A DNA stretch of 64,000 nucleotides from Escherichia coli (GTDB lineage: Bacteria; Pseudomonadota; Gammaproteobacteria; Enterobacterales; Enterobacteriaceae): NCBI RefSeq assembly GCF_017348835.2, contig NZ_CP071375.1. One strand, 5' to 3'. A model generated the notes under the pieces. It ran no database searches, was not told where the DNA came from, and saw only the letters and a list, made by a program, of their open reading frames with translations. How positions within the stretch are numbered: the stretch's first letter is position 1; every line of letters starts with the position of its first letter. A program made the position numbers and the translations under genes. Below, one piece after another: positions 33,646 to 34,344 of the stretch.

Positions 33646-34344
33646 AAATATAACTCCATTAATTTGATATTATTCCTGTGTGTTATCCATTTATTAAATT
33701 TGGATAAACCCGATCGGTATTTGATCAGAATCAAAATAGTACTACCAATATACTTTGGCGCAAGTGGTTTTTATTTTATACATTTAGATAAATTAAATTA
33801 GGTGTTAAGCAAAACTAAATTTATATCGTTATGTGATTGCTTAAAAGAAGAGGGAATAATAAATGGATATAAATATTATTTTTATGATGAGGTGATTTTT
33901 TAATTATATCACACATCTCAAAGCAGACAATTTTTTCATATTTACATAATCCACAACTATGAATTTGCGTAGAAAACAGTCTTATTTTTAGTAAACCACA
34001 CATTCAAATTATATTTTTTGCCTATATTTGTGGAAAGACTATATATTTACAGTGATAATTTATTATCACACATTGTTACATAGTTAAATAAAATTACATA
34101 TTGATGATTGTTTTACAAGCGATTCTTGAATGAACAAAACGTGCTATTCATTACAAAGTACGTCAATTATGGCAATTGTTTGTCAATGATTCGAGGTATT
34201 TAATTACTACTACGGTTAAAACAAGTGTTCAACGGTCCCCCAAATAATAGCTGAAGTTAATTATATGGAATGAGGTTAGATTATTAATGCTGGTAAGTAA
34301 AAGGGCCGCCAAAAGGCAGCCCTTCGTTCAGCAAATGAATAATA

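Follow-up and report, generated by a model that had tools for sequence, protein, structure and literature searches.

What role is played by the long sequence that separates glmS from the gene for a fimbrial major subunit in the 64,000-nucleotide stretch of Escherichia coli DNA studied here (hereafter the window), and from which of its elements could the adjoining fimbrial operon be expressed? The gap measures 699 bp (positions 33646-34344) and runs from the end of the glmS reading frame at 34345 to the ATG of lpfA2 at 33645, both genes lying on the minus strand and being transcribed in the same direction. With a probability of about 0.8, we interpret it as the non-coding cis-regulatory region and 5' leader of lpf2, the chaperone-usher operon of O-island 154. 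The identity of this locus as lpf2 is already known and has been studied previously, and our results leave the understanding of fimbrial regulation or of attTn7 unchanged; what they contribute is detail, namely an extended -10 element that is conserved in position, conserved blocks within the leader, a glmS terminator borne by the island and grounds for doubting direct control by Fur. Lpf2 contributes to colonisation by pathogenic E. coli, EHEC among them, and knowing where its promoters and operators lie helps to explain the timing of fimbrial expression in the gut.

The lpf2 locus and its leader

The RefSeq annotation of strain PE164 and of O157:H7 gives the gene order glmU-glmS-leader-lpfA2-chaperone-usher-two fimbrial genes-pstS. 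By the same annotation, which comes from a 100% identical strain in the case of PE164, lpfA2 (33043-33645, minus strand) encodes the 200-residue major subunit of long polar fimbriae 2; it is the first gene of a five-gene operon extending to 27485, and Fimbrial and FimA domains of Pfam are recorded for its homologs. The gene is at least 99% identical to lpfA2 in 353 genomes, with O157:H7 and O55:H7 among the matches listed. The leader has a full-length match in 354 of 5,426 complete E. coli genomes (6.5%), at an identity of 95.7-100%, and in these 354 genomes it is always chromosomal and present once. Its best match is the pig isolate PE164 (100%), while almost all the O157:H7 strains listed, EDL933 and RIMD 0509939 included, show 98.7% identity over the 699 bp. 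Given these matches and the annotated lpfA2 and glmS on either side, the locus in the window is lpf2 of O-island 154, the position of which between glmS and pstS has been confirmed (PMC6033998).

The regulatory region under study therefore corresponds to that of lpf2 in O157:H7 (Torres et al. 2004; Arenas-Hernandez et al. 2014), with the same locus, the same flanking genes and the same position between glmS and pstS. The window, however, derives from a non-O157 strain whose five lpf2 genes are all intact, whereas in the O157:H7 operon the chaperone gene is split and the last gene is interrupted by a stop, so that part of lpf2 regulation may there serve a decaying operon. The island comprises five fimbrial genes with no regulator gene among them, as had been anticipated in the original prediction, and RefSeq records no feature under the leader among the matches listed.

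What distinguishes the leader is its composition. Its GC content is 27.9% overall (23-28% locally), as compared with 47.8% over the window and 53.8% in glmS. Nowhere else in the 64 kb do stretches of 300 or 500 bp reach so high an AT content, and among stretches of 700 bp the leader provides the second highest; the A/T-rich string that had been quoted as an example lies at 33876-33907. The description of a long, very AT-rich and non-coding leader preceding the gene for a fimbrial major subunit is fully borne out, that gene being lpfA2. Its A/T tracts number 17, against 14.9 +/- 3.3 expected from base composition, and it has 8 promoter-like matches, against 5.2 +/- 2.2 in shuffled sequences. 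Since both counts are at chance level, the unusual property of the leader consists in its length and composition, not in an enrichment of motifs.

Could such a region conceal an unannotated gene, either for a small protein or for an sRNA? The reading frames of 30-60 codons that a program calls on both strands, as well as the promoter-like sites that both strands carry, might suggest so, but when six of these frames were compared across six strains none was found to be maintained. The frame of 60 residues lacks its ATG in four of the six strains and carries a frameshift in LSU61; that of 33 residues is interrupted by a stop in one strain and frameshifted in a second; those of 31 and 30 residues have lost the start codon in at least one strain; and in that of 45 residues all changes are non-synonymous, with loss of the stop in one strain. 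Pfam returned nothing meaningful for the leader frames, and the sole Rfam hit between 32500 and 35000, at E <= 1, is a chance microRNA match inside glmS. Moreover, a scan for Rho-independent terminators finds none inside the leader, and the sequence occurs no more than once in any E. coli genome searched and has no match in plasmids. A hidden gene is consequently very improbable, and the earlier statement that the region holds no convincing reading frame stands: the frame comparison, Pfam and Rfam revealed neither a conserved coding gene nor a known sRNA. A mobile-element origin of the leader was also considered, and rejected in view of the same absence of plasmid matches and of second copies in E. 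coli.

Relatives of LpfA2 were retrieved by a protein search, after which the corresponding contigs were fetched; a scan of species-representative genomes gave two loci. Orthologous operons linked to glmS were found at locus L012 (LpfA identity 82%), in Salmonella enterica (loci L015 and L016, 71%) and at locus L010 (62%); L012 and L010 belong to two other Enterobacteriaceae. Their leaders measure 776 bp with 31% GC at L012, 653 bp with 25% GC in Salmonella and 680 bp with 29% GC at L010, and are respectively 58%, 50% and 40% identical to that of the window. A long AT-rich leader thus persists in four lineages, with lengths of 699, 776, 653 and 680 bp and GC contents of 25-31%. A more distant system is the lpfA-O113 (lpfB1) island, present in about 1,890 of the 5,426 genomes, which occupies the same insertion site between glmS and pstS and shares with lpf2 a homologous hairpin after glmS, the AATGGAGT ribosome-binding site and a chaperone-usher operon. 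It differs in having an operon of four genes (PMC6033998), an LpfA about 52% identical to LpfA2, and a leader of about 250 bp, with 21% GC, that does not align to the leader of the window. Because this island manages with about 250 bp, some 700 bp are not required for an operon of the lpf2 type.

The glmS 3' end and the island junction

Homology with K-12 ends directly past the glmS stop codon, at 34343, and begins again at 27378, some 105 bp before pstS. An island of 6,964 bp, absent from K-12, here substitutes for 206 bp of the K-12 spacer between glmS and pstS, and since the homology stops immediately after the stop codon, the glmS terminator of K-12 has been replaced. In its place stands an intrinsic terminator hairpin (34300-34325, minus strand), GAAGGGCUGCC-UUUU-GGCGGCCCUUU followed by a short U tail, which was recognised by folding and from its homologs. 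It has an 11-bp stem with a folding energy of -21.2 kcal/mol (z = -4.8), and in sequence it bears no relation to the hairpin of K-12. Hairpins homologous to it, which differ in the loop and include a compensatory replacement of an A-U by a G-C pair, occur at L010, at L012, in Salmonella (L015) and in the lpfA-O113 island; indeed, one follows glmS in every lpf2-type locus retrieved, from which we deduce that the terminator travels with the island. A consensus terminator scan missed the hairpin of the window, owing to its short T run (UUUU, partly within the stem), while the homologs of L010 and L012 pass. Transcription of glmUS would accordingly be expected to end at this strong island-borne hairpin, 20-45 nt past the glmS stop codon.

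The last 36 nt of glmS (34345-34380, minus strand), CCGCGTAACCTGGCAAAATCGGTAACGGTTGAGTAA, are identical to those of K-12 except for one synonymous T>A change. This is the stretch that TnsD recognises in attTn7. Tn7 inserts about 25 bp downstream of glmS, and the insertion point predicted for the window, 23-25 bp past the stop codon (approximately 34320-34322), would fall inside the 5' arm of the island's hairpin. As the TnsD-recognised stretch is conserved, attTn7 should be usable in this strain. No insertion, of Tn7 or otherwise, is present in the window, nor in any of the matches listed, which are single full-length pieces; each of the 354 genomes covers at least 80% of the leader query in one place. 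Compared with K-12, then, the window preserves the 3' coding sequence of glmS and likewise has a strong hairpin at a comparable distance past the stop codon, but the sequence of that hairpin and everything downstream of it differ. The proposal that the leader abuts the native glmS terminator and attTn7 needs to be qualified in this sense: the region does adjoin glmS and the TnsD sequence is intact, while the terminator is not the one of K-12 but the island's own. In one strain carrying the lpfA-O113 island, an IS4 element was seen within the glmS hairpin.

Promoter candidates and the predicted 5' untranslated region

Four promoter-like sequences on the minus strand were evaluated against an alignment of seven variants, consisting of six from E. 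coli and one from Escherichia sp. E1V33, and against the orthologous leaders. The most distal, P1 (34260-34287, TTAATA-16-TATAAT), matches the consensus at 10 of 12 positions and is probably not functional, for the first base of its -10 hexamer is changed from T to G in three of the seven variants and its region cannot be aligned in the orthologous leaders. An equal match is shown by P2 (34008-34036, TTTCCA-17-TATAAT), which is a weak candidate, both hexamers being altered in strain 1604D011 and the -10 hexamer in E1V33.

The third candidate, P3 (33903-33930), again with 10 of 12 matches, has in addition the TG of an extended -10 element. It is composed of a -35 hexamer, TTGTCT (33930-33925), a 16-nt spacer and TGaTATAAT (33911-33903), with an A-tract directly upstream. 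Both hexamers and the TG are invariant in the seven variants, while changes accumulate in the spacer, which shows SNPs and, in E1V33, one additional nucleotide. The extended -10 element lies 258 nt upstream of the lpfA2 ATG in the window, and also in L012 (TGATATAAT), and 251 nt upstream in the Salmonella loci L015 and L016 (TGTGATAAT). Given that promoter-like matches are no commoner in the leader than in shuffled sequences, the case for P3 is one of conservation, and this constancy of position in leaders that have otherwise diverged is the strongest indication of a working promoter in the region. We give about even odds to P3 being the main promoter of lpf2. From its position as an extended -10 sigma-70 promoter, transcription would most likely start near 33896 and produce a 5' UTR of about 250 nt. 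Another, weaker promoter may lie closer to the gene, about 91 nt from the ATG: P4 (33736-33763, TTGCGC-16-TACTAT) matches at 7 of 12 positions, and it has counterparts in Salmonella L015 (TTGTAA-16-TATTAT, 9 of 12, at the same distance of 91 nt from the ATG) and in L010 (TTGTAA-18-TATTAT, at 124 nt), which point to it by their position.

The predicted 5' UTR (33646-33896, minus strand) is AU-rich and would terminate in a conserved ribosome-binding site, AATGGAGT, in which the Shine-Dalgarno motif GGAG (33654-33657) stands 8 nt before the lpfA2 ATG. TGGAGT is kept in all four leaders that could be aligned and GGAGT in six of six; the motif is found in lpfA-O113 as well. Three blocks of the 5' UTR (33797-33758, 33737-33703 and 33683-33664) are 70-85% identical to L012, against an average of 58%, and the proximal 200 nt are nearly invariant, forming the least variable part of the leader among E. 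coli strains. Further upstream, a distal block, ATAGCACGTTTTGTTCATTCAAGAAT (34122-34148, minus strand), shows 65-75% identity to L012 and L015, compared with a leader average of 50-58%. In L012 and Salmonella it contains an inverted repeat, TAGCA-N5-TGCTA, of which the right half is degenerate in E. coli. A reading of its TAGCAC...TTG sequence as a sigma-54 promoter of the -24/-12 type was discarded, the GG of the -24 element being absent and the spacing two bases short.

A 5' UTR of this length might itself be regulatory, acting as an RNA switch or thermometer in which a long-range AU-rich helix masks the ribosome-binding site and the AUG at low temperature. The helix proposed would pair 33887-33873 with 33657-33642 and be extended by a perfect 13-nt inverted repeat (33869-33857 with 33696-33684); the minimum-energy fold of 33896-33631 does pair the AUG (z = -3.2), and three SNPs within the helix retain pairing through wobble pairs. 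Yet 70% of 300 controls with shuffled upstream sequence occlude the ribosome-binding site equally or more, its computed accessibility is flat from 20 to 42 C, compensatory changes are absent and three SNPs break pairs. The orthologous leaders, moreover, have folds that are not significant (z = -0.2 and -0.9) and no consensus structure. By these occlusion controls, temperature profiles, covariation and orthologs, a thermometer or a leader sequestering its own ribosome-binding site is largely refuted in silico, and we consider it very unlikely.

Regulatory inputs and the possible role of the AT-rich spacer

How, then, would lpf2 be regulated? Published accounts describe a 4-fold higher expression at pH 6.5 relative to pH 7.2 and a 2.7-fold induction by bile salts (PMC6313751, citing Arenas-Hernandez 2014), the latter effect being reported also for the lpfA mRNA of OI-154 (PMC5357955; PMC3046156). 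They also name iron and Fur among the factors acting on lpf2 expression (PMC4288034, citing Arenas-Hernandez 2014) and report that RpoS has a negative, two-fold effect, with low expression in LB (PMC2907692). With pH, bile salts, iron and Fur (the last disputed) and RpoS all implicated, these second-hand accounts support the control by multiple inputs that had been predicted for this promoter.

Silencing by H-NS, which had been predicted too, is plausible from base composition: the region maintains 28% GC over several hundred bp in a window of 48%, and the island is found in 6.5% of genomes. We would estimate the chances of such silencing as evenly divided. About 400 bp of DNA with 26-30% GC would form a likely platform for nucleoid proteins of this kind and for other regulators. 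A weak phasing of A-tracts at 10.5 bp, taken as a proxy for curvature and centred on 33846-34045, has p ~0.04, a value uncorrected for the 13 periods tested; the H-NS motif TCGATAAATT has a single match with one mismatch (33785-33794), and its counts across the window are those of chance. The natural model for the idea is, by analogy, lpf1 of OI-141 (Torres 2007; Rojas-Lopez 2011), in which the regulatory region is silenced by H-NS and de-repressed by Ler. Like lpf2, it has an AT-rich upstream region, lies on a horizontally acquired island and forms an operon without an internal regulator; the island and the sequence are nonetheless different. Our literature search found H-NS and Ler control documented for lpf1 (PMC4288034) and not H-NS ChIP or de-repression in an hns mutant for lpf2; in a preprint devoted to xenogeneic silencing, lpf does not appear.

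A more specific possibility is that the leader functions mainly as an iron-responsive promoter controlled by Fur, with lpf2 repressed when iron is plentiful. The sites proposed for Fur are a perfect 8-2-8 palindrome, GTGATAAT-AA-ATTATCAC (34069-34052), and/or the related sequence ATGTGTGATATAAT over the -10 element of P3. The half-sites of the palindrome (TGATAAT/ATTATCA) are exact Fur half-sites and the whole is invariant in the seven E. coli and Escherichia variants; by our estimate, such 8-bp palindromes would be expected by chance at about 0.06 per spacing. A further occurrence of the motif ATGTGTGATA overlaps the -10 element of P3, and the involvement of iron and Fur stated in the literature goes in the same direction. 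However, the half-sites have a 7-2-7 spacing instead of the canonical 7-1-7, and the palindrome lacks its right half in L012, the 82% ortholog. The best score in the leader for the canonical 19-bp Fur box, GATAATGATAATCATTATC, is 13 of 19, equal to that of shuffled sequences, and the best match to the 7-1-7 form, TGATAATnATTATCA, is 10 of 14. Furthermore, a qRT-PCR study of a fur mutant found no Fur regulation of z5225 (PMC4382993). These scans provide an in-silico reason to doubt direct control of lpf2 by Fur, and a predominantly Fur-dependent promoter appears unlikely. Even less credible, to the point of being nearly negligible, is a phase switch, by which either a segment between 13-bp inverted repeats would be invertible or a Dam/Lrp mechanism would operate at two GATC sites (33726-33711). 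Phase variation is common among fimbrial operons, perfect inverted repeats of 13 bp enclose a segment of 160 bp, and both GATC sites, 12 bp apart, are conserved; but no inverted form was seen, the matches listed being all single and collinear, and the island has neither a recombinase nor a gene of the papI/papB type. Two GATC sites are also close to the number expected by chance (about 1.8, as estimated), they do not show the spacing of about 102 bp found in pap, and the 13-bp repeats are not conserved in L012.

Why should the leader be so long? One answer is that everything in the 700 bp other than the terminator and a minimal promoter is neutral filler of an acquired island, kept AT-rich by mutation bias and not by selection. 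This would accommodate orthologous leaders that are just 40-58% identical, an O113-type island that works with about 250 bp, a patch that diverges by about 20% within E. coli, an 11-bp deletion tolerated in LSU61 and motif counts that base composition predicts. Against it, four lineages have retained a length of 650-780 bp and a GC content of 25-31%, the conservation of several blocks rises to 70-85% over a background of 50-58%, and the proximal 200 nt hardly vary in E. coli; we therefore consider it improbable that the leader is filler throughout. The opposite extreme would be that the AT-rich spacer is a selected architecture, common to all glmS-linked operons of the lpf2 type, in which a platform defined by its composition silences and insulates the operon and carries operators for pH and bile. 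Were this true, the spacer would protect the fimbrial genes from the strong transcription of glmUS, and the operators would be the distal block at 34148-34122, the palindrome at 34069-34052 and the UTR blocks within 33797-33703. We advance it only tentatively, as a rather doubtful extension of the reading that we prefer, that of a non-coding cis-regulatory region and 5' leader of lpf2.

Two features of the leader vary among E. coli strains in a manner that deserves mention. The most variable patch (33951-34011) exists as two haplotypes, about 20% divergent and with two indels. In the proximal part, the leader of the window, which differs from that of O157 at 9 positions, has two of these changes creating a perfect palindrome of the FNR/CRP family, TTGAT-TCTG-ATCAA (33721-33734, of the form TTGAT-N4-ATCAA). 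It is specific to the lineage of the window, its left half reading TGGTT or TGGCT in other strains, and it may be a chance occurrence.

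Variation within the leader

The AT-rich leader between glmS and lpfA2 (699 bp, 33646-34344) is most variable, in the alignment of strains, over a patch at 33951-34011, for which E. coli has two haplotypes that differ by about 20% divergence and two indels across 60 bp. This variation stands in contrast with the conservation of lpfA2 itself, which is at least 99% identical in 353 genomes. One O157:H7 strain, LSU61, additionally has a deletion of 11 bp (TTCCCTCTTCT), equivalent to 33846-33856 of the window and falling inside the predicted 5' UTR.

Closer to the fimbrial gene, the sequence contains a perfect palindrome, TTGAT-TCTG-ATCAA (33721-33734), a putative site of the FNR/CRP family that overlaps the predicted start of P4, the weak proximal promoter candidate (33736-33763, minus strand; 91 nt from the lpfA2 ATG). 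In the leader alignment of E. coli variants and Escherichia sp. E1V33, the palindrome is restricted to the lineage of the window; E1V33 and the remaining E. coli strains read TGGTT or TGGCT at its left half.

States of the glmS-pstS site and integrity of the operon

Among the E. coli genomes of the collection, three versions of the glmS-pstS site occur: 354 (6.5%) carry the OI-154-type leader, approximately 1,890 (35%) have the unrelated O113-type leader, and the remainder possess neither. The right-hand end of the lpf2 island (27379-27484) has its junction at 27378/27379, just upstream of the Pho box of pstS, so that the distal portion of the K-12 pstS upstream region is missing from lpf2 strains. 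In FDAARGOS_944, a strain with lpfA-O113, the glmS terminator hairpin is interrupted, near the expected insertion point of Tn7, by an IS4-family element whose transposase is frameshifted (1972-3317 of its locus, L004).

All five ORFs of the lpf2 operon are intact in the window. O157:H7 strains and the pig isolate 1604D011 carry a split or frameshifted chaperone gene, and O157:H7 strain 8368 has an internal stop also in the last fimbrial gene; the disrupted genes lie at 6609-7237 and 1861-2943 of comparison locus L002, 1110-1738 of L005 and 1109-1795 of L007 (LSU61).

A second AT-rich block

Besides the leader, another strongly AT-rich block (25-30% GC) occupies 6988-13889, flanked by yieH and by a frameshifted pseudogene of the glucosamine/galactosamine-6-phosphate isomerase/deaminase family that adjoins yieL. 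It includes three genes with the annotation 'type III effector', and in PE164, an identical strain isolated from a pig, two of these genes are pseudogenes.
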